A program made the position numbers and the translations under genes. Below, in pieces: positions 5,187-58,675 of a stretch of DNA of 64,000 nucleotides. Positions within the stretch are counted from its first letter, which is position 1; the number at the start of each line of letters is the position of its first letter. This DNA comes from a virus. The stretch lies in the IMG/VR virus record IMGVR_UViG_3300045988_175656; one strand, 5' to 3'. Below the pieces are notes generated by a model. It made no database searches, was not told the DNA's origin, and was given only the letters and a program-made list of their open reading frames with translations.

Positions 5187-5197
5187 AATATAATAAA

Positions 5198-5239
5198 TTG
5201 TTATTTTTTCATTTAGTTTACTAATAATTAGTAAACTAA
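5198..5239 (+). promoter_or_regulatory. MASTF leader element 1 (TTG-TATTTTTT box + 27-bp palindrome)
   Basis: TTGTTATTTTTT at 5198-5209; palindrome TTAGTTTACTAATAATTAGTAAACTAA at 5213-5239; ATG at 5247. Confidence 0.7.
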
Positions 5240-5246
5240 TGAGAAA

Positions 5247-6170
5247 ATGGCTAGTACATTTACAATTAAACAAGAAGGATATGATGACCCATACACATAT
5301 AGACTTGGTATGGTTGGTAATGGAGTAAGATTATGTATTGCTCCTAAAAAGGAAGGTGGAAGTCAATTATTCAGAAAAGAAGATGAAAATATATGGACTT
5401 CCATTTCATATGATAATAATGGAAAATATATTGCTTGTGGTAGAACACCAAGTGGTACAGGGTGTATAAGTATTTCATCTGATAAATGTGAAACGTGGTC
5501 AGAGACAAAAATTTTAGGTGATATATGGGCTGGAGTTGCATGTGGAAATGGTAAATATGTTGTTGTTGGCAGAAACGGATATGTTGGCATGTCAACAGAT
5601 GGTGAAAATTGGGACATATCTCAAATTGATAATGATTTAAGTTGTTCAAGTATTGCTTATGGTAATAATATGTTTATTATTGTTGGTAATACCATATCAA
5701 CTCCAACTGCTCCTAAATCTTATGTATTAAAAAATGGTAGTGATGAATGGGTTGAACTTAAATATAGTTCAACAAGTTTTACTATTGAATCAATTACTTA
5801 TAGTGATTATTCAAACAGATTTGTTAGTGTTGGAAGTAGTTTAGCACTATCAACAAGAGATGCTGATTATTGGGATATTGAAAGAGTTGCAGATGGTGCT
5901 GATTTATATGCAGTTGCATATGTAAATAGAGAAATTGCAGTAGGTAATCATGAAGAAATTTATTATAATGGTGCAAATGGATGGAAATTAGTTCCATATG
6001 ATTCACCTGGTAATATTATATGGCTAAGTGTTGCTTATATTCCTGGAATGAAAGCTCATATAGCTGTTGGTACTTCAGGGTATTCAGTTGCATTTACAGA
6101 TAGTAATAATAGAACTGCAAAAACAAGGTTTTGGACTAAAGATTTATTATGTGTTATTAATGTTGTTTAA
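5247..6170 (+). CDS. MASTF-family protein 1, Asp-box/BNR-like beta-propeller repeats
   Basis: Starts MASTFTIKQEG, 7 nt after the family palindrome. Repeats SSDKCETW, STDGENW and TRDADYW, each followed by a GN..Y/F..VG strand. Confidence 0.8.
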   Translation: MASTFTIKQEGYDDPYTYRLGMVGNGVRLCIAPKKEGGSQLFRKEDENIWTSISYDNNGKYIACGRTPSGTGCISISSDKCETWSETKILGDIWAGVACGNGKYVVVGRNGYVGMSTDGENWDISQIDNDLSCSSIAYGNNMFIIVGNTISTPTAPKSYVLKNGSDEWVELKYSSTSFTIESITYSDYSNRFVSVGSSLALSTRDADYWDIERVADGADLYAVAYVNREIAVGNHEEIYYNGANGWKLVPYDSPGNIIWLSVAYIPGMKAHIAVGTSGYSVAFTDSNNRTAKTRFWTKDLLCVINVV

Positions 6171-6202: not shown

Positions 6203-6661
6203 TTATCCTGATACATCATAAGTAAAACCATTATTTGAACTATCAATTATGACTTTAGTTTCATCATTCGATTTTAATTTAATTTCAAATACTTTTGCTG
6301 CTCCACTTGGTTTAGGGTCAATACATGAAATTACTCCATTTGGAAAATTTTCTGAACTACTATCATCCAAATAACAATATTCTGGGTTGTTGGTATTAGG
6401 ATTTATATATAACATATAAGAATCATCACCTGTGTTCTTATAATAATACTTTAATAAATTAAAATTATCCAATATTTCAATATCAACATATTGAAACCAG
6501 TTAAATGTAGGTGAATTACCACTATTTGTTTTTGCCTTTATTGGCAATTCATATATTCCACATTCCCACCATGAAGCATTTAGATATGATGATGATGAAT
6601 CAATATATGCAGTAACTAATTCTTCTTTTCCTTGTTGTATAATTGTAAAAGTGCTAGCCAT
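6203..6661 (-). CDS. MASTF-family protein 2
   Basis: Starts MASTFTIIQQG; palindrome at 6668-6694; ends ..GFTYDVSG. Confidence 0.8.
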   Translation of the reverse strand: MASTFTIIQQGKEELVTAYIDSSSSYLNASWWECGIYELPIKAKTNSGNSPTFNWFQYVDIEILDNFNLLKYYYKNTGDDSYMLYINPNTNNPEYCYLDDSSSENFPNGVISCIDPKPSGAAKVFEIKLKSNDETKVIIDSSNNGFTYDVSG

Positions 6662-6667
6662 GTTTTG

Positions 6668-6709
6668 TTAGTTTACTAATTATTAGTAAACTATTTAAAA
6701 AAATAACAA
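6668..6709 (-). promoter_or_regulatory. MASTF leader element 2
   Basis: The reverse complement reads TTGTTATTTTTTT-aa-ATAGTTTACTAATAATTAGTAAACTAA; ATG at 6661. Confidence 0.7.
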
Positions 6710-6749
6710 TTTTTAATATTTTTTATTCATACATTTCAATAAAAAGTTG

Positions 6750-7731: not shown

Positions 7732-9033
7732 ATGAAAGAATATACATTTGATGAAATAAGAAAAGAAGGGTTGTTAATATATGAATATATTCGTGGTTCT
7801 CATGCTTATGGTTTACAAAAACCTGATGGTACCAGTGATGTTGATACAGCAGGTGTTTATCTTGAACCAATTGAACAAGTTTTAGGGCTTGGATTGGATT
7901 TTCAAGAACAAATTGAAGATGAAAAACATGATAATGTTTGGTTTTCATTAAGAAAATTCATGGAAATGCTTCTTTCTTCAAATCCAACAGTACTCGAATC
8001 TTTATTCATTCCTGAAGATAAAATTTTGTACGAACACCCTATAATGACAGAAATTAAAAAATATAGAAACGCCTTTGTGACAAAGGCATGTTTTAAACCA
8101 TTTATGGGTTATGCTAAAACACAAATTATAAAAGCTCGTGGTCTCAATAAGAAAATAGTAAATCCAGTCAAAGAACGTTTAGAACCTCTTGATTTTGCTT
8201 ATACTTTTTACAATCAAGGAAGTACTAAGATTAAAAATTGGCTTGAATATAGGGGTTTAAAACAGCAATATTGTGGACTTGTACATATACCTAATATGCA
8301 TGATACATATGGTGTATATTATGATTGGGGTAATCATTTTAATGATAATGGTATAACTGTTGAACAATTATGGAATGACTATGTTAATATGGAGAAAGAT
8401 AATCAATTATCTCATATGTGTGAATGTATTGTTGAAACATACCATATAGTTGGTCATGCTGAACTTGAAAATTGGTTTGAAGAACAAAAGCCAATTGGTT
8501 ATAAAGGTATGGTTGGTGAAGATGGACTTTCAAATGAATTAAGATTATCTTCAGTTTCTAAGGGTGAAATGCCAATATGTCATTTGACTTATAACAAAGA
8601 TGGCTATACTAAACATTGTAAGGATTATAAAGCTTATAAGGATTGGGAGAAGAATAGAAATCCTGAAAGATATAAAGAAAACAAGGAAAAGGATTTTGAC
8701 AGAAAAAATATGTCACATAGTGTAAGATTAATGCATATGGGACTTGAAATAGCAAAAACTGGACAAGTTAATGTTGATAGAACAAATATTGACAGAGATT
8801 TCATTCTTGATATTCGTCTTGGCAATTCAACTTATGATGAATTGATTAATTATCTTGATTCAAAAAAGGAAGAAATGGAAAATGCGATGGCAAAATCTAC
8901 TCTACCAGAAAATATTGATGTTGAATTTGTAAATAATCTTTTATTGAAAGTTAGAAAAAAACAATATAAATATTTCATATGGAATAGATTAAAAGCTAAA
9001 TATTTCATATGGAATAGAACAAAAACTATATAA
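7732..9033 (+). CDS. RlaP-like (pol-beta superfamily) nucleotidyltransferase
   Basis: N-terminal RGSHAYGLQKPDGTSDVDTAGVY matches the GS-x(n)-DxD NTase motif typical of the RNA-repair-associated RlaP family. Confidence 0.7.
   Translation: MKEYTFDEIRKEGLLIYEYIRGSHAYGLQKPDGTSDVDTAGVYLEPIEQVLGLGLDFQEQIEDEKHDNVWFSLRKFMEMLLSSNPTVLESLFIPEDKILYEHPIMTEIKKYRNAFVTKACFKPFMGYAKTQIIKARGLNKKIVNPVKERLEPLDFAYTFYNQGSTKIKNWLEYRGLKQQYCGLVHIPNMHDTYGVYYDWGNHFNDNGITVEQLWNDYVNMEKDNQLSHMCECIVETYHIVGHAELENWFEEQKPIGYKGMVGEDGLSNELRLSSVSKGEMPICHLTYNKDGYTKHCKDYKAYKDWEKNRNPERYKENKEKDFDRKNMSHSVRLMHMGLEIAKTGQVNVDRTNIDRDFILDIRLGNSTYDELINYLDSKKEEMENAMAKSTLPENIDVEFVNNLLLKVRKKQYKYFIWNRLKAKYFIWNRTKTI
8968..9018 (+). repeat. 21-nt direct repeat x2 (30-nt period) at the 3' end of the NTase gene
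   Basis: AAATATTTCATATGGAATAGA at 8968-8988 and 8998-9018; encodes KYFIWNR twice. Confidence 0.85.
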
Positions 9034-9081: not shown

Positions 9082-9534
9082 TTAAAGAATTGGATGTTCA
9101 ATTGTTAAACCAGCATTAACAGTTATTCCATCAACAATTATTGTAAATGTACAATAATCATCATAATTACCTTCTGCTTTATCTTTATCATATATACACT
9201 GTAAATCAGCAATTGCCATTTGATTATTATGAGTAGTCACACAGTTTTTCCAATAATTAAAATTAACATCAGTAGTAGATTGATATGGACTTAAATTAAC
9301 TTCTAAATGTCCATAATACGAACTACCACTCATATTAACAGCTAAATTAGTAGTTACTCTATCTCCTGCAATATCTGATATTGTAACATCAAGATAATCA
9401 CCATTCATATATTGTTCTGTATTTGATGGTGGTGTTCCCCCAGGTGTAAAAACCATACCATTTGCAGTTAATCTAATACTAAAAGTTATGGTTCTTAAAT
9501 TTCCATCTTGATTAATTCTAAAAGTACTCGCCAT
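9082..9534 (-). CDS. MASTF-family protein 3
   Basis: Starts MASTFRINQDG; palindrome at 9543-9569. Confidence 0.8.
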   Translation of the reverse strand: MASTFRINQDGNLRTITFSIRLTANGMVFTPGGTPPSNTEQYMNGDYLDVTISDIAGDRVTTNLAVNMSGSSYYGHLEVNLSPYQSTTDVNFNYWKNCVTTHNNQMAIADLQCIYDKDKAEGNYDDYCTFTIIVDGITVNAGLTIEHPIL

Positions 9535-9542
9535 TGTCTTGT

Positions 9543-9584
9543 TTAGTTTACTAATTATTAGTAAACTAAATGAAAAAATAACAA
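9543..9584 (-). promoter_or_regulatory. MASTF leader element 3
   Basis: The reverse complement reads TTGTTATTTTTT-cat-TTAGTTTACTAATAATTAGTAAACTAA; ATG at 9534. Confidence 0.7.
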
Positions 9585-9588
9585 TTTT

Positions 9589-9891
9589 TTAGTCAGGATA
9601 TTGATAAATTCCATCAGTTGTTGGAGTACAATGACACCACCAGTCTCCTGTTGTTCTAAATCCCCATATATTTGTCTGCCCTTTTTGTACAATTACTGTT
9701 TTAGAAATATGTCTTCCAGGGTTATCACAATCAATATACATTATTAATACACTTATGTCAACATTTGTTGGATGCTCAAATCTTAAATCATATTGATTAC
9801 AATTACTTCCTTCATCACCTTCTTTTTTTGGTAATATATTATTCATTGGTAATGATTTACCTACTTGGTTAATTATGAATGTGCTTGCCAT
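9589..9891 (-). CDS. MASTF-family protein 4
   Basis: Starts MASTFIINQVG; palindrome at 9899-9925; ends ..GIYQYPD. Confidence 0.8.
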   Translation of the reverse strand: MASTFIINQVGKSLPMNNILPKKEGDEGSNCNQYDLRFEHPTNVDISVLIMYIDCDNPGRHISKTVIVQKGQTNIWGFRTTGDWWCHCTPTTDGIYQYPD

Positions 9892-9898
9892 GTTTTGT

Positions 9899-9936
9899 TT
9901 AGTTTACTAATTATTAGTAAACTAAACAAAAAAATT
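9899..9936 (-). promoter_or_regulatory. MASTF leader element 4
   Basis: The reverse complement reads GAATTTTTTTG-TTTAGTTTACTAATAATTAGTAAACTAA; ATG at 9891. It lies in the divergent region shared with the tail-fibre operon. Confidence 0.65.
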
Positions 9937-15226: not shown

Positions 15227-16603
15227 TTAATAGTTAATATTATTAATATGTTTAAAGCATTCTTCTTTAGTGATAAGTGGGTTATTTAGCCATAATTTAG
15301 TTAAATAATCTAAATATAATTTAACTTTTGGACCAGGCTCTATATTCTTATATGATATAATATCTTCACCATTAACAGGAAGTTTTAGTTTAAAAGCATC
15401 TAATCCTTGTTCAACTAATTTATCACTTCTTTCTTTGATTAATCTTACCTGATTTGGCATACAATGGTCAGATTTATGTGCTCTATTATCTGCATCAATC
15501 AAATCCATTGTAAGTTCAAATGTGTCACCAAGAGCTAATTGTAATTTACGAACACTTTTATCTTTTAATTTTGCACAATCATCACCAAACGATTTAGTTC
15601 TCATATGAGCATTTACAGCCTTTCTAACACGTTTAATTATATCATTCGGGTATTTCATTGTTCTCATTCTAACCTCACTTAAAAAGGCTGAAACGTTCTC
15701 ATGATTGTAAAAATGAATTTTTCCATTTTCATCAACTGTTTTAGTTTTTATTTTACCTAAATCATGAAACAATGCAGCAACTCTATTTTCAAGAATTGGT
15801 TTTGTATTATCAACAACCATTAGTGTATGTTCCCATGCAGTTCCAAAATGATATTCATTCTGTTCAAGATTCACCATTTCAACAAAATCAGGAAGGACGT
15901 ACTGAAGTAAACCTGTTTTTTCTAACATTCTTAAACCAACACTCGGTTTTTTTGTTAAAAGAATTTTATTTATTTCATCAGTAACCCTTTCTTGTGTGAT
16001 AATTTGAATTCTTTCAACATTATCAATAATTCCTTGCATTGTTTTTTCTTCTATTTCCCATCCATAACGAGATGCAAATCTTATACAACGAAGCATACGG
16101 AGAGCATCTTGGTTAAATATAATATTTGGGTTAGAAGTAGAACGAATAATTTTACTATTTAAATCGTTTAGACCTTTTCCAGAAAAATCGTATAATTCAT
16201 CAGTTGATATATTAATAAACATTGAATTAATCGTAAAATCTCTTCTCAAACATTCTTCTTCAATTGTACAACTTTCCACTATTGGATTTCTTGAATCATC
16301 TTTATATTTTTCACTTCTTGGTGCAACACATTCGATTTTTTCTCCCATAAAATTGAACATAGCAGTTCCATAAAGTCCATAACAAAGAGGTGGATGTAAC
16401 TTCATCTTATCACAAAACCAAATTGCGAAATCTATACCTGCATTAATATCACCATCAATCAATAAATCAATATCATTTGACTGATTACCCATAATCAAAT
16501 CTCTCACATAACCACCAACTACCATAACTCTATTCTCATATTCAGTATTTTTGATAGTGTCTTTAATTGAAAGTAATATTTTATTTTCTATTTTAATATT
16601 CAT
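15227..16603 (-). CDS. cca: tRNA nucleotidyltransferase (CCA-adding enzyme / poly(A) polymerase family) with HD domain
   Basis: GGYVRD...NDIDL head motif, RRDFTINSM, and WEHT...FHDLGK (HD). Confidence 0.85.
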   Translation of the reverse strand: MNIKIENKILLSIKDTIKNTEYENRVMVVGGYVRDLIMGNQSNDIDLLIDGDINAGIDFAIWFCDKMKLHPPLCYGLYGTAMFNFMGEKIECVAPRSEKYKDDSRNPIVESCTIEEECLRRDFTINSMFINISTDELYDFSGKGLNDLNSKIIRSTSNPNIIFNQDALRMLRCIRFASRYGWEIEEKTMQGIIDNVERIQIITQERVTDEINKILLTKKPSVGLRMLEKTGLLQYVLPDFVEMVNLEQNEYHFGTAWEHTLMVVDNTKPILENRVAALFHDLGKIKTKTVDENGKIHFYNHENVSAFLSEVRMRTMKYPNDIIKRVRKAVNAHMRTKSFGDDCAKLKDKSVRKLQLALGDTFELTMDLIDADNRAHKSDHCMPNQVRLIKERSDKLVEQGLDAFKLKLPVNGEDIISYKNIEPGPKVKLYLDYLTKLWLNNPLITKEECFKHINNINY

Positions 16604-16959: not shown

Positions 16960-17002
16960 TTGTTATTTTTTTAATTTAGTTTACTAATAATTAGTAAACT
17001 AA
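16960..17002 (+). promoter_or_regulatory. MASTF leader element 5
   Basis: TTGTTATTTTTTT then a perfect palindrome at 16976-17002; ATG at 17009. Confidence 0.7.
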
Positions 17003-17008
17003 CAAAAC

Positions 17009-17338
17009 ATGGCGAGCACATTTAAAATTATACAAGCAGCACATATAATAAAAAATGATTGTACAATTAGAATCAGTAGAGTAGGTGGTTCATGTGTAGA
17101 TATTAGAGCATCTATACCAACAACATCAAAAGTAAATGTATTCTTAAATATAACATATTCAGATGGTATGGGCAATCAAGAGGACATATGGTTAATTACA
17201 ATCCCAAAGGGAACAGAATCATCTTATAGAACTTGTTATGGAATGGGTGGAGATGAAATAGAAATAATGTCAGCTTCTCTTAACGATTTTTCGCCATCAC
17301 AAGACGATACAACAATTTATGATGTCATAGTATCTTAA
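17009..17338 (+). CDS. MASTF-family protein 5
   Basis: Starts MASTFKIIQAA; palindrome at 16976-17002; ends ..TIYDVIVS. Confidence 0.8.
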   Translation: MASTFKIIQAAHIIKNDCTIRISRVGGSCVDIRASIPTTSKVNVFLNITYSDGMGNQEDIWLITIPKGTESSYRTCYGMGGDEIEIMSASLNDFSPSQDDTTIYDVIVS

Positions 17339-17347
17339 AAAATTAAG

Positions 17348-17385
17348 TATTTTTCGATTTAGTTTACTAATAATTAGTAAACTAA
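17348..17385 (+). promoter_or_regulatory. MASTF leader element 6
   Basis: TATTTTTC box at 17348-17355; perfect palindrome at 17359-17385; ATG at 17394. Confidence 0.7.
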
Positions 17386-17393
17386 ACAAAATA

Positions 17394-17789
17394 ATGGCAA
17401 GCACTTTTAAAATTATGCAGCAAGGATATACACCATTAGTAAAAACATTATACATAAATGTTAGTGGAACTTCTGATTTAATCACAATAAACATTGTTGG
17501 TGATGATGGTAACTTTCATTATCCAACTTCAGTTTTATATTTTGCTCTTGAATTTAATTCAGGCGGTAATAGTTGTGTTGGAACTACAATAGATATTGAA
17601 TATAGTAATTTAGAAAATTCACCTATGTATATGAATGTAACAGGCGATTTTGGTAGTAGAACTATTAATAGAAATTCAATATCAATTACTGATTTAGGTT
17701 GTGATGGCAACTATGAAATACCAATTTATATATACTATGGTGGTAATCAATCAGATGATACCTATGATTATGTTGTAAGAGTTGTGTAA
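17394..17789 (+). CDS. MASTF-family protein 6
   Basis: Starts MASTFKIMQQG; palindrome at 17359-17385; ends ..TYDYVVRVV. Confidence 0.8.
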   Translation: MASTFKIMQQGYTPLVKTLYINVSGTSDLITINIVGDDGNFHYPTSVLYFALEFNSGGNSCVGTTIDIEYSNLENSPMYMNVTGDFGSRTINRNSISITDLGCDGNYEIPIYIYYGGNQSDDTYDYVVRVV

Positions 17790-17809
17790 ATTTTTCTCCT
17801 TTAGTACAG

Positions 17810-17847
17810 CATTTTTGCATTTAGTTTGATAATAATTATCAAACTAA
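17810..17847 (+). promoter_or_regulatory. MASTF leader element 7 (covarying variant)
   Basis: CATTTTTG box; palindrome TTAGTTTGATAATAATTATCAAACTAA. AC/GT is changed to GA/TC in both arms, so pairing is kept. Confidence 0.7.
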
Positions 17848-17853
17848 ACAAAC

Positions 17854-18204
17854 ATGGCAAGCACTTTTACAATTTTACAAGATGGGTATGTACCATTAAA
17901 GCCACATATTAATATTCATCTTGAAGATGGAAATTATGGTACAGGGATGGACGGTTTTTTTATAATTGCAACTGCTGAAAAACCTGTTAATAGTAACTTA
18001 ACAATAACAGGTACAGTATATGCATTAGGAGATAATATTGAGAAAGAAATATCAAAGAATTTTACATTATATATAAATAAGTCATCAACAAATGGAGATA
18101 CACATGTATTTAATAATACGCCACAAATATGGTTAAATTATATGGACAATTTAAGTGTATCTCCAAATGAAGATTCATTATATTCATATGATGTTAATTG
18201 GTAG
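17854..18204 (+). CDS. MASTF-family protein 7
   Basis: Starts MASTFTILQDG; covarying palindrome variant at 17821-17847; ends ..LYSYDVNW. Confidence 0.8.
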   Translation: MASTFTILQDGYVPLKPHINIHLEDGNYGTGMDGFFIIATAEKPVNSNLTITGTVYALGDNIEKEISKNFTLYINKSSTNGDTHVFNNTPQIWLNYMDNLSVSPNEDSLYSYDVNW

Positions 18205-19934: not shown

Positions 19935-20702
19935 TTAATTAACATTAAATGCATCTTCAAGTGACATGATTAGTTTTTGCATATCTGCTTTATAAAAACC
20001 TGCACTATTAGTACAATTACACTCTATAATTTTATAACCATTTTTAGTTAAACAAATGTCCATAACAAATGTATCATTAACTTGATACAAACTAACCATT
20101 TGATTAACAAAATCATATGCATCATTATCAATAATATCACTTAAATAATAGTTTCCACCAACATTATAAACACTTGCAGTTGCAATTTCACCTTTTACAA
20201 TCCAAAATCTTATTTCATTTAAAATATTTTTAACTGATGATACTTGAACCAAAGTATCATCAGTTAATATACTATTTGGGTTAAGTTTTAATTTTTCAAT
20301 AAAAGAGTACCAATCATCTTTATCTTTAAAAACTCTTCCAGTAAATGCTTTGGTATCTTTGGTTGGTCTCGCAAAAAAGGAAGTGTGAGGTGTAACATCT
20401 TTTACTTTCATTATTTTTGAATCCGCATTTAGTAAATTGTCACCATAGTATTTACTATATACCTCATAATCATGATTTTCATTCATAAATGACCCAGGAT
20501 TCCATTCATATTTTCTTGCAATCTTAGCCATTCTAACAGCACCAAATGGAAATATATCTTTTCTATCAGTATGAATAGTAATGTTATCATTATTAGGCTG
20601 AAGTTTAATGATTTCATAATCCAATTCTAACCTTTCTAATGTTCTTATTAAATTTTCATAATTTTCTTCTCTAAATAGTTTTTCTTGAATTACATAATAC
20701 AT
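19935..20702 (-). CDS. ATP-grasp-like protein (phage DUF4343/R2K-like)
   Basis: The track start at 20708 is TTG; the ATG is at 20702. C-terminal RFWIVKGEIATASVY...VMDICLT.NGYKIIECNC..SAGFY resembles an ATP-grasp C-domain. Confidence 0.5.
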   Translation of the reverse strand: MYYVIQEKLFREENYENLIRTLERLELDYEIIKLQPNNDNITIHTDRKDIFPFGAVRMAKIARKYEWNPGSFMNENHDYEVYSKYYGDNLLNADSKIMKVKDVTPHTSFFARPTKDTKAFTGRVFKDKDDWYSFIEKLKLNPNSILTDDTLVQVSSVKNILNEIRFWIVKGEIATASVYNVGGNYYLSDIIDNDAYDFVNQMVSLYQVNDTFVMDICLTKNGYKIIECNCTNSAGFYKADMQKLIMSLEDAFNVN

Positions 20703-20728
20703 AATCAATCTTTTTAAAATTTATAATG

Positions 20729-21694: not shown

Positions 21695-24600
21695 TCAAAA
21701 TGGGTTTTTCCATTTTGGTGGAATACTTGAATAGTTATTTAAATTATAACATTTATTAAAGCATCCAGTTCCACTTGGTGTACTTGGGTATTCAGGTTTA
21801 TTAGCTCTTTCCCACAATTCAATACCATCCGTTCCTGTTGGCGTATTTCCTGTTAAACTAGTACAGCCACTAAATGTACCATTAAAAGAAAGAACATTTT
21901 TGTTATTATCAAATAAATTATTTGGTATAGATGCTAAATTTTCACAATCCCTAAATACATTATTAAAATATCTTACATTTGGAGTATATACAAATAAATT
22001 TTCAGGTATTGAAACTATTTGAGGTAAATAACTAAATGTACCACTAAAACCAGTGACTAATATATTATATTTAAATAAATCTTCGGGTATAGTAGCTGTT
22101 AAACCTTTACAACCGCTAAATGTGTTTTCAAAGTCAACTACATTAGGACAATTTTTAAATAAATTTTCGGATATTACACCTGTTAAACCTGAACAATTAC
22201 TAAATACTCCACCTATTTTAGTGACAACAGTATTATTTTTAAATAAATTTTCTGGTATTTCCCCTATAATATTGGTTTTTGAAAAAAACAAATGAAAAGT
22301 TTGTACTTTAGTATTATTTTTAAATAGATTTTCAGGTATTGTGCCTGTTAAACCTATACACCCACTAAATGTACCTGTAAAATCAGTTACTTCAGGGCAA
22401 TTTACAAATAGATTTTCAGGTATTGTGCCTGTTAAACCTGAACATCCACTAAATGTTTGCCAAAATGATTCTGTTTTGGTATTATTTTTAAATAAATTTT
22501 CTGATATTGAACCTGTTAAACCTGAACAATTACTAAATGTAGTGTTAAAATATTTTACATTAGAACAATTTTTAAATAAATTCTCAGGAATAGAACCTGT
22601 TAAACTTGAACAGTAACTAAATGTATTGGCAAATGTTGTAACTTTTGTACAATTTGCAAATAAATTTTCTGGTATTGAACCTGTTAAATTTCTACAACTT
22701 CCAAATATGCCACCAAAATTTGTTACATTATAACAATTATCAAACATATTATCATATATAGCAGTAGTTAAGCCTGAACAACTTAAAAAACACCCACTTA
22801 AAGTTTCAAGATTATAACAATAATCAAAAAAACCTTTAGGAACTGTTATTAATTTATTACATTTGGCAAAAGTATAAGATAAATTTGTTACATTTGTAAA
22901 TGCTCCATAAGTATCTGTTGGAATACTTTCTAAATTAGTACAACCTGAAAACGCATATGATAAATCAGTAATACCCATCCATATACTACCCCAACTAACA
23001 ACTTTAGTTAATAATTCTGGATTAAAATTATGAGCATCTAATTTATCAAATGTCCCATTTATTGTAATTGTATATGTTCCTGTATTACTATATGTATGGG
23101 ACGGATTATTATTAGTTACTGTTTGAACTGCTGAATTATCTCCCCAATCAATTGTACAATTAACATTTCCTGATATTGGTAAATAAATTAAATTAGTTCC
23201 TAATGATGATATGGTATATTCTAATATCATTGGAAAAGTCTCGTTACAACGCCAAACTGGGTCTATTATATGGTATCTATTCAAATTAGTATCACGGCAA
23301 AAACATTGTGTTCCATTTATAGAACTTGGATAACCTGTTTGCCCTGCTCTTTCCCATAATTGTAAATTATCTGTACCTGTTGGCGTATTACCTGTCAAAC
23401 CTTTACAACCCTGAAATGTGTTACTGAAATTAGTTACTTTTTTGCAAACATCAAAAATATTATTTGGTATTGAACCTGTTAGACCTGAGCAATTATTAAA
23501 TAAATTAGCAAAAGTTGTTACTTCTTTATTATTAACAAATAACCCATCAGGAATAGATGCAATATTATAACATCCACTAAATGTAAAACTAAAGTTTGTA
23601 ACAATAGTATTATTGATGAATAATGTAGATGGAATAGATGTTAAACCTGTACAACTACTGAAAGCTCCACCAAAAGTTGTAACTTTAGTATTAGTTGAAA
23701 ATAAGTTAGATGGTATGGAATCCAATTTATTATCATTTTGAAAAATATTTAAGAAACTTGTAACTTCTATATTATTAGTAAATAATGTTTCAGGTATATT
23801 AACCAAATTACGACAAGAAGCAAATGCTGAACTAAAACCAGTTACATTGATATTATTTGCAAACAATGTTGATGGTATTGATGTTAAACTTGTACAAGAA
23901 CTAAATACACCTGCCATATCAATTACATTAATACAATTATCAAATAATTCTTCAGGAATTGATTGTAGCTTTGTACAATTATTAAATGTTCCATTAAATG
24001 ATGATACATTATAACAATGAAAAAATAAATTTCCTGGAATTGATACCAAATTGGAACAATAAGAAAATGTATTTAAAAAACTATTTACGTTAATAAATGT
24101 TTCATAATCGTCATTTGTAATTTCAACTAAGTTAATACATCTACTAAATGCATTGTCCATATTTGTTAATAATGTATTAGTATTACCCCAACTAATTATT
24201 TTAGTGACATTAGTTGAACAATTGTACATTCTTTCGAAATCACCATTTATTTTTACAATATAAGTTCCAGCAGTTTGATATGTATGGGATGGTCTATCAG
24301 ATGTAACAATTTCCTTACTACTTTCATTACCCCAATCAATTTCACAATTAACATTGCCTGATATTGGTAGTGTAACTATCAGATTATCAGGTAATACATT
24401 AAATTCTAATGTAAATGGAATTGGTGGAATTGGCTCAATCCAAAAATCACCTTCTTTTGGTTTATCAGGTGCAGTTTCACTAATAGTTATAGTTGGTATT
24501 GATGTATTTATTTTATCTAATGTATATTGTTTAGAACGAAACGGAACAATATCATCAGCATCATTTTTAACAAATAACGTTTCTTTACCAGTACTATTAT

Positions 24601-24700
24601 TTAATACTAATTCACCATTCTCTATTTCATTTATATCAGGAAAATAAACATCATTATTTAACAATGTGTTTGAATTTTTGATAATTACTATATCTTTCAT
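21695..24700 (-). CDS. large tail-fibre/adhesin-like protein with two PKD-like + BspA-type LRR modules
   Basis: 1001 aa with a fibre-like N-terminus (GELVLNNSTGKETLFVKN). It has two collinear modules. Each begins LPISGNVNC.IDWG..S....VT...PSHTY...GTY.[IV].ING. About 11-15 repeats of ~25 aa follow (LF.NC..VT.F..TFS.C.GLTG.IPEN). Each module ends TGNTPTGTD...LWERA. Confidence 0.8.
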   Translation of the reverse strand: MKDIVIIKNSNTLLNNDVYFPDINEIENGELVLNNSTGKETLFVKNDADDIVPFRSKQYTLDKINTSIPTITISETAPDKPKEGDFWIEPIPPIPFTLEFNVLPDNLIVTLPISGNVNCEIDWGNESSKEIVTSDRPSHTYQTAGTYIVKINGDFERMYNCSTNVTKIISWGNTNTLLTNMDNAFSRCINLVEITNDDYETFINVNSFLNTFSYCSNLVSIPGNLFFHCYNVSSFNGTFNNCTKLQSIPEELFDNCINVIDMAGVFSSCTSLTSIPSTLFANNINVTGFSSAFASCRNLVNIPETLFTNNIEVTSFLNIFQNDNKLDSIPSNLFSTNTKVTTFGGAFSSCTGLTSIPSTLFINNTIVTNFSFTFSGCYNIASIPDGLFVNNKEVTTFANLFNNCSGLTGSIPNNIFDVCKKVTNFSNTFQGCKGLTGNTPTGTDNLQLWERAGQTGYPSSINGTQCFCRDTNLNRYHIIDPVWRCNETFPMILEYTISSLGTNLIYLPISGNVNCTIDWGDNSAVQTVTNNNPSHTYSNTGTYTITINGTFDKLDAHNFNPELLTKVVSWGSIWMGITDLSYAFSGCTNLESIPTDTYGAFTNVTNLSYTFAKCNKLITVPKGFFDYCYNLETLSGCFLSCSGLTTAIYDNMFDNCYNVTNFGGIFGSCRNLTGSIPENLFANCTKVTTFANTFSYCSSLTGSIPENLFKNCSNVKYFNTTFSNCSGLTGSISENLFKNNTKTESFWQTFSGCSGLTGTIPENLFVNCPEVTDFTGTFSGCIGLTGTIPENLFKNNTKVQTFHLFFSKTNIIGEIPENLFKNNTVVTKIGGVFSNCSGLTGVISENLFKNCPNVVDFENTFSGCKGLTATIPEDLFKYNILVTGFSGTFSYLPQIVSIPENLFVYTPNVRYFNNVFRDCENLASIPNNLFDNNKNVLSFNGTFSGCTSLTGNTPTGTDGIELWERANKPEYPSTPSGTGCFNKCYNLNNYSSIPPKWKNPF
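21698..24418 (-). repeat. internal duplication of the PKD-like + LRR module (module A 23246-24418, module B 21698-23242)
   Basis: Both modules share start and end blocks (LPISGNVNC.IDWG..., TGNTPTGTD..LWERA) and ~75-nt periodic LRR units. Confidence 0.75.
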
Positions 24701-24740: not shown

Positions 24741-24778
24741 TACTTTTTTAATTGCTTTACTAATTATTGATAAACTAA
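24741..24778 (+). promoter_or_regulatory. MASTF leader element 8 (degenerate)
   Basis: TACTTTTT box; TTGCTTTACTAATTATTGATAAACTAA with arms only partly complementary; ATG at 24785. Confidence 0.5.
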
Positions 24779-24784
24779 ATAAAT

Positions 24785-25813
24785 ATGGCAAGTTATTTTA
24801 AAGTTATGCAAGATGGAAGAGAAGTTGAGTTCTCTTTTTATCTTAATAATCTAGTTGTGAGAGTACCATACACCAATGGATATTTTTCTCTTGTAGGCGA
24901 AACATCTGATTCAATTGGCAGTGTTACAATTGTTTCAACAAAAGAAGGTGTTGATATTCCTTACACTATATCAACAAGTGATAGTTGGTTAACTTCAGAA
25001 ACAGGCAAAATTATCTTATCTGAAAATACAGGGGGAGAACGTAGAGGTACTGCGACAATTACACAAAGTGAAAGTGATGAAGATATTGTGATTACCTTTA
25101 TTCAAGAAGCAAAACCTGCTGACAATTATACATTTGCTTTTGTAAGCAATGATACTGTTGATTCACCTGCAAGTGGAATGTCATTTAATGTATATCTTGA
25201 AAGTTATAGTGGTAATACGCAAGACAATACAGTAGGAGCAACACACACATCTTTACCTGATTGGATTACAGGATGGGAAAGTGTTGATATGGGTACTGGT
25301 TATGTTGCATTTACAGGACGAACAGTTGCAAATGATACTTATCAAGATAGAACAGCAGTGATTACATTTACTCAAAATGAATCTGGAAAAATACTTAGAT
25401 TTACAGTTACACAAGAAGCTAAACAAGAGTTGAAAGTTCCAATGTCATGGGATATTAATTTTACTAATGATTCAACAACTCAAACAACTTCACGTTTCTA
25501 TTTAACATTAAGAGATGGTTCAAATTGGATTAATGCATTCTCTTTATTAAGAGGTCAAATGAATTCAGGTATAACAGAAAGAGAACAGGGTAGTTATACA
25601 AGTGGAACTGAAGAAGCGTTTACTGCAACATCATGTACAATATTATCAACATCAGGTAAAAGGGATTTATATTCGATTTATTTTAATGGTACATTAGTTA
25701 TACAAACAACTATTCAGGGTGATGGTAATGAACATACAGTTTCATTAAGAAGTCGTATTCCTGTTACTGGTTTAGAAATGAAATGGACTGGACAAGTAAC
25801 ATATATGGATTAA
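24785..25813 (+). CDS. MASTF-family protein 8 (MASYF variant) with two BACON-like modules
   Basis: Starts MASYFKVMQDG; degenerate palindrome at 24752-24778. BACON-like modules: SWLTSETGKIILSENTGGERRGTATITQSE.. and DWITGWES...ANDTYQDRTAVITFTQNESGKILRFTVTQEA. Confidence 0.75.
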   Translation: MASYFKVMQDGREVEFSFYLNNLVVRVPYTNGYFSLVGETSDSIGSVTIVSTKEGVDIPYTISTSDSWLTSETGKIILSENTGGERRGTATITQSESDEDIVITFIQEAKPADNYTFAFVSNDTVDSPASGMSFNVYLESYSGNTQDNTVGATHTSLPDWITGWESVDMGTGYVAFTGRTVANDTYQDRTAVITFTQNESGKILRFTVTQEAKQELKVPMSWDINFTNDSTTQTTSRFYLTLRDGSNWINAFSLLRGQMNSGITEREQGSYTSGTEEAFTATSCTILSTSGKRDLYSIYFNGTLVIQTTIQGDGNEHTVSLRSRIPVTGLEMKWTGQVTYMD

Positions 25814-25848: not shown

Positions 25849-25860
25849 ATGTACTAATTT

Positions 25861-25902
25861 TTGTTATTTTTTATGATAGTTTACTAATAATTAGTAAACT
25901 AA
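25861..25902 (+). promoter_or_regulatory. MASTF leader element 9
   Basis: TTGTTATTTTTT; palindrome ATAGTTTACTAATAATTAGTAAACTAA at 25876-25902; ATG at 25918 (15-nt spacer, the longest). Confidence 0.7.
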
Positions 25903-25917
25903 ATAAATACAAACAAC

Positions 25918-26865
25918 ATGGCGAGTACTTTTAAAATTACACAAGAAGGTAAAATTTCAGATATATATGAATTTGAATTTTACAGCCCATCAGGGGAAAC
26001 AGATGTTACCATTAATGCAAATTCATCTTCGGGTGAAGATTCCACTATTAGTAATGTTAAATCATTGAAAAATGGTTCTTATATTGGATATAATAGGGAA
26101 ATTGGTTGTTCTTGGGTTACTTTTCAAACAGGTTCATTATATTGGGAAAAGAATACAAATGGAACACCTAGAACTTGTGTTATTACATTAACACAAAATG
26201 AAAGTAATAAAAAAATGTATATTAGAATTAACCAAGCAGGTGAATATACATTTAAATGGGATGGTACAGATAATACTAATGTACAAGATACTGTGGATTA
26301 TAATGCAAGTTCTTTTAATAATGGATGGTCTAAAACAAGAAATGTTATAAGTGAATATAATTATGACAAAATTAGTTGGTCTGCCACAACAGATGCTTCT
26401 TGGATAACTCCAACATGGAATTCATCAACAGGTCAAACTAATTACATGACATTAAAAATTAATTCAGATAATACAGGAAGTAGTACACGTACAGGTGTAG
26501 TTACATTGAAACAAGATGTATCAAATAAAATACTGACTTGGACTATTATACAGCAAACACAAGCTCAGTATAAACCATCTATTTACTTCAAAGTATCACC
26601 ATTTAGTACTTATATATTTAATATTCAAATAGACACTGAAAAAAGTGCATTTAATGCTAGACCTTATAGTGAGTTACAAATTGAATGTACTTGGCATTCA
26701 AGTAGTGGTAATGTAGTTTATCATACTTTAAAATTTCCAGCTGATGCTGAAGAAAGTGAATTTTATTCAATACCTGAAGGTGATAGACCAACAACGTTAA
26801 CTAATGCAGTTACTATTGTGAATATAACTCCATCATTTGATAATGTATATTATTATCGTATTTAA
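25918..26865 (+). CDS. MASTF-family protein 9 with two BACON-like modules
   Basis: Starts MASTFKITQEG; palindrome at 25876-25902. BACON-like modules: CSWVTFQTG...NTNGTPRTCVITLTQNES and ASWITPTW...NTGSSTRTGVVTLKQD. Ends ..VYYYRI. Confidence 0.75.
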   Translation: MASTFKITQEGKISDIYEFEFYSPSGETDVTINANSSSGEDSTISNVKSLKNGSYIGYNREIGCSWVTFQTGSLYWEKNTNGTPRTCVITLTQNESNKKMYIRINQAGEYTFKWDGTDNTNVQDTVDYNASSFNNGWSKTRNVISEYNYDKISWSATTDASWITPTWNSSTGQTNYMTLKINSDNTGSSTRTGVVTLKQDVSNKILTWTIIQQTQAQYKPSIYFKVSPFSTYIFNIQIDTEKSAFNARPYSELQIECTWHSSSGNVVYHTLKFPADAEESEFYSIPEGDRPTTLTNAVTIVNITPSFDNVYYYRI

Positions 26866-27530: not shown

Positions 27531-28256
27531 TTATGCCTTTGATTTAGCTATTAAATTGCGATAATCAACAGTTTTAATCTTAACAATAATTCTCTCTCCC
27601 TGTTTATTAAAAAGTTGAACAGTGGGCTTTAAAACAAGTCCCTCAGCTTCATATTCTGTATTCTCTGCAATTGGGGATTTAAAACCTCTTCTTACCATCT
27701 CTTCTGCTTCTTTCAAAGTCATTTGTCCATAGTAGTAACAAGTAGGCAAATTAAGTTTGGCTGCAATATCAAGTTTAGCATCTCTATCGAGCCACCAACC
27801 ATTAATCATTACATCAAATACACGCACCCCACAATCATTTTTAATGTAATTTCCACCTTTCTGAATTTTCACTCCATACCCCTCTCCATAAATTCTTACA
27901 TTGAGTTCTTTCTTGTTACCATTTTCATCATATTCAGCAGGAAAAATTTCTTGCATCATTTCAACAGTAACAAGTTCTTCCATTTTCTTTTTAAGATGCT
28001 TAGGAATGTCTGCATTAGCTGATTTACCATGAATTTCAAGAGTTGTGCCATCCCAATACCAAAATACATTAGTACCATCTACCTTTTCTTCTGCATCCCA
28101 AAGGCAATTATAAAGGTATTTAAATTCAGGACGTGAAAAATCACCAATAATAATCTGATTTTTTAACGGTCCTTCAGTATAACGTTTATACAATGTATTG
28201 ATTTTTGTATAAGTACGATGATGTTGTTCAAATGCTGTTAATTCCTTTTCTTCCAT
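27531..28256 (-). CDS. ATP-dependent RNA ligase
   Basis: Covalent nucleotidyltransferase motifs: EEKVDGTN (KxDG), GEGYG, EGLVLKP and VKIK. Confidence 0.75.
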   Translation of the reverse strand: MEEKELTAFEQHHRTYTKINTLYKRYTEGPLKNQIIIGDFSRPEFKYLYNCLWDAEEKVDGTNVFWYWDGTTLEIHGKSANADIPKHLKKKMEELVTVEMMQEIFPAEYDENGNKKELNVRIYGEGYGVKIQKGGNYIKNDCGVRVFDVMINGWWLDRDAKLDIAAKLNLPTCYYYGQMTLKEAEEMVRRGFKSPIAENTEYEAEGLVLKPTVQLFNKQGERIIVKIKTVDYRNLIAKSKA

Positions 28257-30861: not shown

Positions 30862-30906
30862 CGAATTAATTATGAACAAAGAAAAAATATTTTAATAAAA
30901 TATGTG

Positions 30907-30944
30907 AATTTTTGCGATTAGTTTAATAATAATTATTAAACTAA
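30907..30944 (+). promoter_or_regulatory. MASTF-type leader element 12, orphan (covarying variant)
   Basis: AATTTTTG box; palindrome TTAGTTTAATAATAATTATTAAACTAA (C/G changed to A/T in both arms). Only a 4-codon ORF (30960-30974) follows, then terminator 31001-31028. Confidence 0.55.
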
Positions 30945-31000
30945 TTAACAACACAGAAAAATGTCATCTCTGTAACCATATATGGCGTTATATGGGAAAG

Positions 31001-31028
31001 TCCCTCAAAATTTTTTGAGGGATTTTTT
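31001..31028 (+). terminator. intrinsic terminator after the orphan MASTF-type leader
   Basis: CCCTCAAA-attt-TTTGAGGG followed by GATTTTTT. Confidence 0.6.
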
Positions 31029-31037
31029 GTTATATAA

Positions 31038-31078
31038 TGTTATTTTTTTAAGTAGTTTACTAATAATTAGTAAACTAA
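31038..31078 (+). promoter_or_regulatory. MASTF leader element 10
   Basis: TGTTATTTTTTT; palindrome GTAGTTTACTAATAATTAGTAAACTAA at 31052-31078; ATG at 31086. Confidence 0.7.
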
Positions 31079-31085
31079 CAAAACA

Positions 31086-31451
31086 ATGGCAAGCGAATTT
31101 AGAATTTACCAATATGGTAAACCAAAACCTATTACAGTAAAATGGAGTATGGTAAATAACATGCAAAATCCACCTGCTTGTATTCAATCATTCCATTTTT
31201 ATTTTAATAATGGAAAAACTATAAATATACAAGGTGGTGGTGGAATATGTTATGGTAGTACAAGAAATGGTACTATAAGTGGGATAGCATCTGCAAGCGA
31301 TTTTCCACTCACAATAACATCTTATGAATATCAATATTCTAGTAATCCTAATACCTCTGGAATGAACTATTCTGTAAACATTTCATCTTATACATATAGT
31401 GATTATCAACAAGGAAAAACATTAGAAATTACAGTTAACAGTTATATTTAA
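31086..31451 (+). CDS. MASTF-family protein 10 (MASEF variant)
   Basis: Starts MASEFRIYQYG; palindrome at 31052-31078. Confidence 0.75.
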   Translation: MASEFRIYQYGKPKPITVKWSMVNNMQNPPACIQSFHFYFNNGKTINIQGGGGICYGSTRNGTISGIASASDFPLTITSYEYQYSSNPNTSGMNYSVNISSYTYSDYQQGKTLEITVNSYI

Positions 31452-38803: not shown

Positions 38804-38848
38804 CAAAGGTAGAGAAAGTTTCTCTACCTTGCAAATTATTTGAGTTAA
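38804..38848 (-). promoter_or_regulatory. early-type promoter cassette (TTTG-N20-TACCTTTG)
   Basis: caaaggta at 38804-38811; caaa at 38832-38835; tgagttaa ending at 38848. Confidence 0.65.
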
Positions 38849-42985: not shown

Positions 42986-43030
42986 CAAAGGTAGGTATTT
43001 TGCTTATACCTACCAAATATTTTATGTTAA
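42986..43030 (-). promoter_or_regulatory. early-type promoter cassette (TTTG-N20-TACCTTTG)
   Basis: caaaggta at 42986-42993; caaa at 43014-43017; tatgttaa contains the stop of 43027-43662. Confidence 0.65.
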
Positions 43031-46058: not shown

Positions 46059-46097
46059 TAACTTTTTCATTTAGTTTACTAATAATTAGTAAACTAA
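46059..46097 (+). promoter_or_regulatory. MASTF leader element 11
   Basis: TAACTTTT box; perfect palindrome at 46071-46097; ATG at 46104. Confidence 0.7.
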
Positions 46098-46103
46098 ACA
46101 AAC

Positions 46104-46442
46104 ATGGCAAGCACTTTTAAAATTTATCAACAAGGAAAACAAGTTGAAGAAATCACTATTACTGTTATGGCTTATCAATATTGTCAATTAACAGTAGAAA
46201 TGTCAGAAGATGGCAATACAACATTTAAACAAAATATGTCACAAGGAAGTCAAGAAAGATATATGGTAGCCAAAGATTCTGTTATAAATTATAAAACATT
46301 CCCAATAAATTGTAGTGAAGATGTTATAAGTAATTTCTATGATGATAATGGAAATTTAATTAATTCTTGTTCAATGGGGGTAACATTATATAATATAACA
46401 AAAGGTGTTGATAAATTTATGACTATTGAAATAGGAAGATAA
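46104..46442 (+). CDS. MASTF-family protein 11
   Basis: Starts MASTFKIYQQG; palindrome at 46071-46097. It is the only rightward gene inside the 31.5-64 kb leftward block. Confidence 0.8.
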   Translation: MASTFKIYQQGKQVEEITITVMAYQYCQLTVEMSEDGNTTFKQNMSQGSQERYMVAKDSVINYKTFPINCSEDVISNFYDDNGNLINSCSMGVTLYNITKGVDKFMTIEIGR

Positions 46443-50232: not shown

Positions 50233-50277
50233 CAAAGGTAAGCATTCTCAGCTTACCTTGCAAAAAATTAGAGTTAA
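50233..50277 (-). promoter_or_regulatory. early-type promoter cassette (TTTG-N20-TACCTTTG)
   Basis: caaaggta at 50233-50240; caaa at 50261-50264; gagttaa contains the stop of 50274-50813. Confidence 0.65.
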
Positions 50278-58104: not shown

Positions 58105-58509
58105 TTACCATGAATAAGTTGAACAAGGTGCATTAATATCATGTTTAATTTCTATAATATCAATTACAACTTTCTTATCAAACATTAAAGAAATTTCTTT
58201 TGTTAATTTGTCAATATCACTACCACCTCTTCCAATTAAAATCCCTGGTCTTTTTGTAAAGATTTTTATATCAATAATATCTTTTTGCGTATCAACATTT
58301 ATACCATGTATTTGTAATATGTTGGCTGTATTATATACTTTCTCAATGCAAAGATACACAGTTTTTAATGGGCTATATATAGCAAGTGTTTTGCTTTTAC
58401 TTCCATCCATGAAATACTCGTTTTCAATCTTAAATGACAAAGTATTCATTTCATTTTTAATGAATAATTGTTTAATCTTTTTTTCAATGAATTTTTTAAA
58501 ATCTTTCAT
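58105..58509 (-). CDS. KH-domain (type II-like) RNA-binding protein
   Basis: IFTKRPGILIGRGGSDIDKLTKEI has a GxxG loop in a KH-like context. Start moved from 58587 to ATG 58509, because the extension overlaps small gene 58526-58675. Confidence 0.5.
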   Translation of the reverse strand: MKDFKKFIEKKIKQLFIKNEMNTLSFKIENEYFMDGSKSKTLAIYSPLKTVYLCIEKVYNTANILQIHGINVDTQKDIIDIKIFTKRPGILIGRGGSDIDKLTKEISLMFDKKVVIDIIEIKHDINAPCSTYSW

Positions 58510-58525
58510 AGTGAAATATTTTTTG

Positions 58526-58675
58526 TTAATTAAATATAAAATCATACGCTTTCTGTACACTGTCAAAACTAATATGTAAACAGTCATTTCCGATTGAAAT
58601 GCCTAAATCTGACTTGTGTATAGATATATTATAACCTTGTTGCATGATAGCAACTATCATAGTAAAATCATCCAT
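58526..58675 (-). CDS. small hypothetical protein (49 aa), paralogue of 58677-58835
   Basis: MDDFTMIVAIMQQGYNISIHKSDLGISIGNDCLHISFDSVQKAYDFIFN. Below the track cutoff. Confidence 0.45.
   Translation of the reverse strand: MDDFTMIVAIMQQGYNISIHKSDLGISIGNDCLHISFDSVQKAYDFIFN

Follow-up and report, generated by a model that had tools for sequence, protein, structure and literature searches.

A covarying palindrome upstream of the MASTF genes: a predicted 5'-terminal stem-loop in a candidate portable cassette of a putative gut Bacteroidota phage

The 64,000-nt stretch of the virus record IMGVR_UViG_3300045988_175656 (hereafter the window, by which we mean the whole of the DNA that was analysed) raises a simple question: why does one and the same palindrome of 27 bp stand before every member of a family of otherwise divergent genes, and in which form, duplex DNA, extruded DNA or RNA, might it act? 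Eleven copies are situated 6-15 nt 5' of an ATG that opens a protein beginning MAS(T/Y/E)F, which defines what we term the MASTF family. The answer that we develop here is that the palindrome may be the 5'-terminal stem-loop of the transcript and the middle part of a mobile expression cassette. An initial annotation of this DNA had listed 12 palindromes, and all 12 were recovered at the coordinates it gave. Ten of them lie within two mismatches or fewer of the 27-mer TTAGTTTACTAAT-A-ATTAGTAAACTAA, while the copy at 17821 departs from it at 4 positions and that at 24752 at 4-5. No match with three mismatches or fewer arose in 100 dinucleotide-preserving shuffles of the window.

The association with the genes is equally strict. 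A six-frame scan of the window with the pattern M-x-S-x-F-x-[IV]-x-[QK] retrieved exactly 11 open reading frames (ORFs), each of which carries the palindrome 6-15 nt upstream; the claim of the initial annotation that every MASTF gene is so preceded thus holds for 11 of 11. The correspondence between palindrome and gene is one-to-one, the sole extra copy being an orphan at 30918. That the palindrome is a by-product of the MASTF coding sequence was considered and rejected: the DNA pattern that codes for MASTF was matched by chance 95 times in metagenome contigs unrelated to the phage, and none of these matches has a palindrome. The individual units are given below, where the box is the promoter-like element and the alleles are the arm variants, both of which are described further on.

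5197..5246, + strand: cassette 1, with box TTGTTATTTTTT at 5198-5209, palindrome 5213-5239 of allele A and leader; MASTF gene 5247-6170, 307 amino acids (aa)
6662..6710, - strand: cassette 2, with palindrome 6668-6694 of allele A (position 1 is A) and box 6698-6709; MASTF gene 6203-6661, 152 aa
9535..9585, - strand: cassette 3, with palindrome 9543-9569 of allele A and box 9573-9584; MASTF gene 9082-9534, 150 aa
9892..9941, - strand: cassette 4, with palindrome 9899-9925 of allele A (allele B at the orthologous site of L013); MASTF gene 9589-9891, 100 aa
16960..17008, + strand: cassette 5, with box 16960-16971 and palindrome 16976-17002 of allele A; MASTF gene 17009-17338, 109 aa
17343..17393, + strand: cassette 6, with palindrome 17359-17385 of allele A; MASTF gene 17394-17789, 131 aa
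17805..17853, + strand: cassette 7, with palindrome 17821-17847 of allele B (TTTGAT/ATCAAA, two compensated pairs); MASTF gene 17854-18204, 116 aa
24736..24784, + strand: cassette 8, with a degenerate palindrome 24752-24778 (9 of 13 Watson-Crick pairs); MASYF gene 24785-25813, 342 aa, with a BACON domain
25860..25917, + strand: cassette 9, with box 25861-25872, palindrome 25876-25902 of allele A (position 1 is A) and a 15-nt leader; MASTF gene 25918-26865, 315 aa, with a BACON domain
30902..31028, + strand: orphan unit, with box ~30906-30914, palindrome 30918-30944 of allele C, a conserved segment of ~55 nt, and a terminator-like stem-loop with T-run at ~31001-31028
31036..31085, + strand: cassette 11, with box 31037-31048 and palindrome 31052-31078 of allele A (position 1 is G); MASEF gene 31086-31451, 121 aa
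46055..46103, + strand: cassette 12, with palindrome 46071-46097 of allele A; MASTF gene 46104-46442, 112 aa

The last of these genes, 46104-46442, is the single + strand gene within a long array of - strand early genes. Two details of the initial annotation need amendment. The arms had been described as 13 nt long: the constant stem comprises 12 bp (positions 2-13) and a 3-nt loop, while position 1 may be T, A or G and in many copies has no partner. The central base of the canonical copies had been given as A, which is correct within the window; in the relatives (related loci, designated here by L numbers), however, canonical copies with T occur (L006 1037, L010 4484, L016 7594, L020 1174 and L288).

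The palindrome is positioned with respect to a promoter-like box rather than the start codon. The box has the -7-like form TAnnTTT followed by T, G or C. When 60 unique cassettes are compared, its invariant run of at least five Ts stops 2-4 nt short of the palindrome in 59 and 5 nt short of it in the remaining one. About half of the 60 have TTGTTA preceding the T run, which gives TG-n-TAnnTTT, like an extended -10 element. By contrast, the distance from palindrome to ATG ranges over 5-15 nt, with 6-8 nt in most copies. As the spacing to the box is tight and that to the ATG loose, the element is placed relative to the former. The initial annotation had noted such a box without the -33 TTTG of the early promoters, and both parts of the observation are sound: TTTG, sought 17-22 nt upstream of the box, is found in 0 of the 60 cassettes. 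Five exact copies of the 12-mer TTGTTATTTTTT lie in the window, each of them adjoining a palindrome. The standard Bacteroidota sigma-A arrangement, TTTG-N18-21-TAnnTTTG, occurs 32 times against an expectation of 4.65; these -33/-7 promoters are nearly all on the minus strand, 5' of small ORFs between 30 and 64 kb, and none adjoins a palindrome. We also considered and rejected a general late-gene element: in this window neither the exact box nor the palindrome is found except with the MASxF family and the orphan, and half-sites are not in excess of chance (8 isolated half-arms outside the palindromes, where ~13 would be expected).

In Flavobacterium the sigma-A box TAnnTTTG spans -12 to -5 (PMC9723704). 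When these coordinates are applied to the cassette box, the predicted +1 falls at palindrome positions 1-3, which makes the proposal of the initial annotation that transcription starts in the first bases of the palindrome a plausible one. The implied 5' untranslated region (UTR) would be ~33 nt, near the medians of 24-32 nt for Bacteroidota 5' UTRs (quoted in PMC9723704).

Whether the symmetry of the palindrome is itself maintained can be judged from its variants. Across the window and the related loci we distinguish eight alleles, every one of them perfectly symmetric:

Allele A: the canonical form, in most copies
Allele B: changed at positions 8 and 9 (TTTGAT/ATCAAA), at window 17821 and others
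Allele C: changed at position 9 (TTTAAT/ATTAAA), at the orphan 30918
Allele D: changed at position 6, in L014
Allele E: changed at position 5 (T5 to C with A23 to G), in L027, L196 and L217, the orthologs of window 25876
Allele F: as B, with further compensated changes at positions 1 and 4, in L031 and L267, the orthologs of window 31052
Allele G: changed at positions 1 and 27 (A-T), in L233
Allele H: lengthened by one base pair, inserted in the two arms alike, TAGTTTTACTAAT-T-ATTAGTAAAACTA, in L233

Matched changes in the two arms are thus seen at positions 1, 4, 5, 6, 8 and 9. Counted over 13 distinct 27-mers, three of which are decaying versions of the copy before the MASYF gene, both-sided changes affect 6 of the 12 stem pairs; this figure was reached by 0 of 500 shuffles, and sliding the partner column by 1-3 positions leaves 0-1 such pairs. 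Among the non-degenerate copies there is one uncompensated internal change, in L288. Alleles A, B and C occur together in one genome, and A and B alternate before the same orthologous gene (L009 1902 versus L028 9607; window 9899 versus L013 5327). At L233 ~7915-7945, the ortholog of 24752-24778, a perfect palindrome that is one base pair longer in each arm is found where the copy of the window has decayed. Since the alleles coexist and are swapped and yet their variants stay mirrored, down to the mirrored insertion of allele H, comparison of the copies indicates that base pairing is under selection. The initial annotation had reported the compensated variants at 17821 and 30918 exactly as we find them, and had argued from covariation for base pairing as against a single dimer on double-stranded DNA; the eight symmetric alleles, the 6 of 12 covarying pairs and the compensated insertion of 1 bp strengthen that argument.

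The same data bear on the reading in which the palindrome is a double-stranded DNA operator, with a dimeric phage regulator, centred at about +13 like lacO, switching the -33-less promoters as a regulon. The perfect two-fold symmetry over 25-27 bp, the overlap with the predicted +1 and the strong conservation of the sequence against flanks that are only 70-80% identical are all features expected of such an operator, and the lack of a -33 element would imply a dedicated factor. The coexistence of alleles A, B and C and the A/B alternation at one gene, however, mean that a lone dimer reading the duplex must accept all of them; neutral positions should drift independently in each arm, yet all eight alleles are mirrored; and the compensated insertion, harmless to a hairpin, widens the spacing of the outer half-sites by 2 bp, a change to which a rigid dimer should not be able to adapt. 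Further, Pfam gave no helix-turn-helix or other DNA-binding regulator among the ORFs scanned in the window, which is 64 kb of a genome of ~380 kb. We hence regard a duplex operator as unlikely.

If pairing is what matters, the structure can be predicted for either nucleic acid. As RNA the canonical copy is predicted to form the 12-bp stem with the 3-nt loop at -10.2 kcal/mol, against -3.0 ± 1.7 kcal/mol for shuffles; across the copies the predicted folds range from -9 to -13 kcal/mol (z of about -4), alleles B, C and D are predicted to fold as the canonical one does, and for the degenerate copy at 24752 no fold is predicted. An Rfam scan of the window returned no match at the gathering score, and around the orphan only sub-threshold ones. 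Two other interpretations of the dyad were rejected. It is not an intrinsic terminator: the stem is A/T-rich, there is no U-tract on either strand, and the element is absent from the output of a terminator scan. Nor is it a pair of adjacent small palindromes (TTAGT-NN-ACTAA twice), because alleles B and C destroy the small dyads and preserve the large one.

As DNA, the hairpin is predicted at -7.8 to -8.2 kcal/mol, again with a 3-nt loop, and it is conceivable that an extruded hairpin or cruciform is a promoter element read by a phage polymerase or factor, with transcription starting near the 3' end of the palindrome. The precedent is phage N4, whose virion RNA polymerase uses promoters at early genes with hairpins of 5-7 bp stems and 3-nt loops. 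There, as could be the case here, an inverted repeat with a 3-nt loop lies at the promoter and structure rather than duplex sequence is read. The strictly Watson-Crick covariation, the AT-rich context favouring extrusion, the promoter without a -33 element and the leaders of 5-15 nt, which would still be workable, are all compatible with this reading. In contrast to N4, the stem here is 12-13 bp long, a conserved sigma-A-like -7 box that would be superfluous for a hairpin promoter lies at a fixed distance from it, the early genes are served by ordinary -33/-7 promoters, and no polymerase gene was identified in the 64-kb window. A DNA hairpin promoter is for these reasons distinctly unlikely.

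The orphan at 30918 helps to separate the role of the hairpin from translation. It has its own box, and hardly any change is seen in the ~55 nt that follow the palindrome, even when L031, the most distant of the relatives, is included. Downstream, the terminator stem remains paired on the + strand by virtue of G-U pairs together with a double change. The whole unit is of ~110 nt, with the 5' hairpin, two small predicted hairpins and the terminator, and has orthologs in L003, L004, L006, L031 and L193-L196; the palindrome is kept in this unit in every relative examined. It contains no conserved ORF, and its only ATGGCG reads ATAGCG in L031. Because the nearest upstream gene is on the opposite strand, the terminator most plausibly serves the orphan promoter. 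The unit therefore looks like a candidate phage small RNA of ~110 nt expressed from the same promoter-hairpin module. Given that it is conserved and noncoding, it argues that the role of the hairpin is independent of translation and of a start codon. At the site in L014 that is orthologous to the orphan, allele B precedes a full MASTF gene; descent from a family member is thus possible, and the orphan may have arisen in this way.

These observations weaken one of the roles suggested in the initial annotation, that of a translational operator. In this reading the RNA hairpin, alone or bound by a protein, would keep the 30S subunit off an AUG without a Shine-Dalgarno sequence. In most copies the hairpin does end 6-8 nt before the AUG, within the ribosome footprint, and one of the early genes, 58108-58587, codes for a candidate RNA-binding protein of KH type. 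Spacing to the AUG is nevertheless loose (5-15 nt) where that to the box is tight, and the orphan copy is conserved without an ORF, which makes this the least probable of the readings weighed here.

We favour, with moderate confidence, a transcribed 5'-terminal stem-loop within a portable expression cassette. The cassette is made up, in this order, of a Bacteroidota -7-type box without a -33 element; the palindrome, 2-4 nt further on; an A-rich, unstructured leader of 5-15 nt; and the first 11 codons, for MASTFxIxQxG. Transcription would begin within the first three bases of the palindrome, and each mRNA, as well as the noncoding RNA of the orphan, would then open with a stem of 12-13 bp and a 3-nt loop, at about -10 kcal/mol and with a paired 5' end. 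Such a hairpin might shield the transcript from 5'-end-dependent decay, in a stabilising role, and would at the same time isolate the constant, single-stranded, A-rich initiation region from the variable gene bodies. Since conservation extends to the sequence of the stem, a phage or host factor probably recognises it as well.

Hairpins at the 5' end are known to stabilise bacterial mRNAs, and RppH requires at least two unpaired 5' nucleotides (reviewed in PMC3997798). The cassette resembles the 5' stabilising stem-loops of ompA, papA and aprE (PMC3997798) in having a hairpin, predicted in our case, that leaves 0-2 nucleotides unpaired at the very 5' end, and in its compensatory pairing. It differs from them in scale: the known cases concern single genes with no regulon-wide sequence, whereas here the sequence of the stem is shared by more than 11 genes in several genomes.

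Several points weigh against the 5'-terminal stem-loop. The assignment of the promoter, and with it the predicted start, rests on a match to a consensus. We infer that the pairing acts in RNA; the covariation, being entirely Watson-Crick, does not distinguish an RNA from a DNA hairpin. The non-degenerate copies hold no informative G-U pair, and the L288 variant would be A-C on the coding strand and G-U on the other; wobble pairs are confined to the decaying MASYF copies, where 4 events of G-U type against 1 of A-C type are too few to decide. A stable hairpin 6-8 nt before an AUG that lacks a Shine-Dalgarno sequence might itself hinder initiation. The stem is identical across genomes in which the flanks have diverged as noted above, a degree of conservation far beyond what a pure stabiliser needs, although some of this uniformity could be due to conversion of one copy by another. 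Finally, several genomes keep the MASYF gene without a foldable palindrome, and the hairpin would accordingly be dispensable for at least one member of the family.

It is also conceivable that the hairpin, as RNA or as extruded DNA, is a sequence-specific element for a dedicated phage factor that co-regulates the tagged proteins, predicted beta-sandwiches described below, together with one small RNA. Lambda nut boxB, which is bound by the N protein, and the put RNA of HK022 are transcribed hairpins near phage promoters that recruit regulators. The likeness lies in a promoter-proximal RNA hairpin of conserved sequence that is repeated at several transcription units of one phage. However, the stem of boxB is of 5 bp, carries a pentaloop and is located tens of nucleotides downstream of the start, and both boxB and put act in the antitermination of long operons, whereas the genes here are single, with their own terminators. 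We view such a co-regulating factor as unlikely; if it is real, it would make this promoter-proximal hairpin switch, carried in a mobile cassette that diversifies a gene family, new for Bacteroidota and their phages.

That the cassette is mobile is suggested by the junctions at which related genomes gain or lose genes, which fall inside cassettes. L018, L019 and L022 align to the window until 17039 and resume at 17338, with gene 17009 absent; an 85-nt stretch in them matches both of the cassettes in this part of the window. L013 skips from 17047 to 17811 and is without genes 17009 and 17394. As judged from these alignments the cassette is a site of homologous recombination at which family members are added, deleted and swapped between related genomes, and part of the sequence uniformity among the copies hence reflects concerted evolution. 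The portable unit is of ~85 bp and the palindrome is its middle. Separately, we observed chimeric family proteins in metagenomes (P0024, P0026 and P0012), which combine the N-terminal segment of one paralog with the body of a different one, P0024 having a 17854-type N-terminus fused to a 31086-type body; these point to frequent recombination near the tag.

Could recombination then explain everything, with uniformity arising from gene conversion and arm-to-arm correction, and the palindrome providing recombination homology or nothing at all? The junctions inside cassettes, the swapping of whole alleles at orthologous sites and the existence of chimeric proteins are in keeping with this. Yet dyad symmetry is unnecessary for homologous recombination, correction of one 13-nt arm by the other is not an established process, the palindrome is held at a fixed distance from the promoter box, and it persists in the orphan unit of each relative. 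The absence of any regulatory role is therefore very unlikely.

The closest known counterparts of the cassette as a shuffled unit are the promoter-early stem-loop (PeSL) cassettes of T4-like phages (Arbiol et al., 2010, PMC2839356; Comeau et al., 2014, PMC4122927). In both systems a short, conserved, intergenic promoter and stem-loop lie directly 5' of small, variable genes, which in the PeSL case are nonessential; all 12 copies of the window are intergenic stem-loops, adjacent to or internal to a promoter, with a small variable gene on their 3' side. In one subclass of PeSL the stem-loop follows the -10 box and comes immediately ahead of the start site, and indel junctions between close relatives fall within the cassettes, as here in L018, L019, L022 and L013 and in the A/B swaps. 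There are three differences: the PeSL promoters are full sigma-70 early promoters, whereas here there is no upstream element and the early promoters form a separate class; the PeSL stems are G/C-rich terminators, whereas here they are A/T-rich with no U-tract on either strand; and the present cassette continues past the start codon, where it encodes a conserved N-terminal peptide, and is dedicated to one protein family. Apart from the cassettes, 3 of the 32 host-type early promoters, at 38805-38835, 42986-43017 and 50233-50264 (all on the - strand), contain an inverted repeat of 9-11 bp (AAGGTA...TACCTT; -12 to -14 kcal/mol) between the -33 TTTG and the -7 box, which recalls the PeSL subclass with a stem-loop between the hexamers.

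The N-terminal peptide is the only part that the proteins share closely: past residues 1-11 the 11 paralogs have ~20% identity. The tag M-A-S-T-F-x-I-x-Q-x-G (the first 11 codons, such as 17009-17041) is conserved as protein, with third codon positions free to vary among GCA/GCG/GCT, AGC/AGT, ACA/ACT/ACG and GGA/GGT/GGG/GGC; the palindrome has no such freedom. AlphaFold predicts for a member of 121 aa a beta-sandwich of eight strands (mean predicted local distance difference test score, pLDDT, 77) in which residues 1-15, including the tag, are a disordered coil; this model has no significant neighbours in the PDB. Pfam and PHROGs give only the BACON domains of the two long members. The MASTFxIxQxG tag probably serves for docking or targeting. 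When 5.8 billion proteins were searched with a profile, the family was found in this phage clade only.

With regard to the source of the DNA, the window has a G+C content of 24-31%, and its segment 16000-26000 matched no record in a megablast search of the GenBank phage collection. Related contigs of 215-398 kb are found in IMG/VR, ENA and Logan, several of them from human-gut metagenomes, and include the 381-kb contig ERZ27278932 k141_12211. When viral contigs were scanned twice with 17-nt cores of the palindrome, most of the matches were AT-rich palindromes of no relation to this one, and hardly anything was gained. On account of the low G+C, the sigma-A-type promoters, the BACON domains, the lack of a GenBank match and the large related contigs, we assign the window to a very large phage of Bacteroidota, uncultivated and seen in human-gut samples.

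The window contains further features of note. RNA-repair-type genes are present at 7732-9033 (+), 15227-16603 (-) and 27531-28256 (-) and in their neighbourhood, and encode two CCA-adding/nucleotidyltransferase enzymes and an RNA ligase; Pfam additionally gives RlaP and HAD_SAK_2 domains in the window. The ORF 58108-58587 (-) of the minus-strand early region encodes 160 aa with a GxxG motif, GILIGRGGSDI, as in KH domains; its product is probably what lies behind the Pfam KH_2 match and is a candidate RNA-binding protein. At 21695-24700 (-) a protein of 1001 aa with LRR, DUF285 and PKD domains is encoded, which has 484 aa in L193, L194 and L196; L193 and L194 are also without the neighbouring MASYF gene. 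A perfect inverted repeat of 16 bp with a 6-nt loop is located at 20230-20267, inside the ORF 19935-20708 (ATP-grasp R2K).

The kinds of components that make up the cassette, promoter and stem-loop shuffling cassettes on the one hand and 5' stem-loops on the other, are known. Their combination, namely a -33-less Bacteroidota promoter, a hairpin at the predicted +1 that is conserved in sequence and covaries strongly, an extension into a conserved N-terminal peptide and the use of the same module for a putative small RNA, is undescribed in the literature that was searched. For practical purposes, the cassette offers a compact natural unit of promoter, 5' hairpin and leader for expression in Bacteroidota, and the 27-mer is a direct handle for finding the putative factor of the regulon. 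Little is known of post-early gene control in the very large Bacteroidota phages of the human gut, and the cassette provides a clean second promoter class in one of them, in which a -7 box without a -33 element is combined with a structured element at the predicted +1, whose covariation is unusually clear whether copies of one genome or of several are compared. The cassette further illustrates the expansion and shuffling of a family of small, tagged beta-sandwich proteins, of which some have BACON domains.

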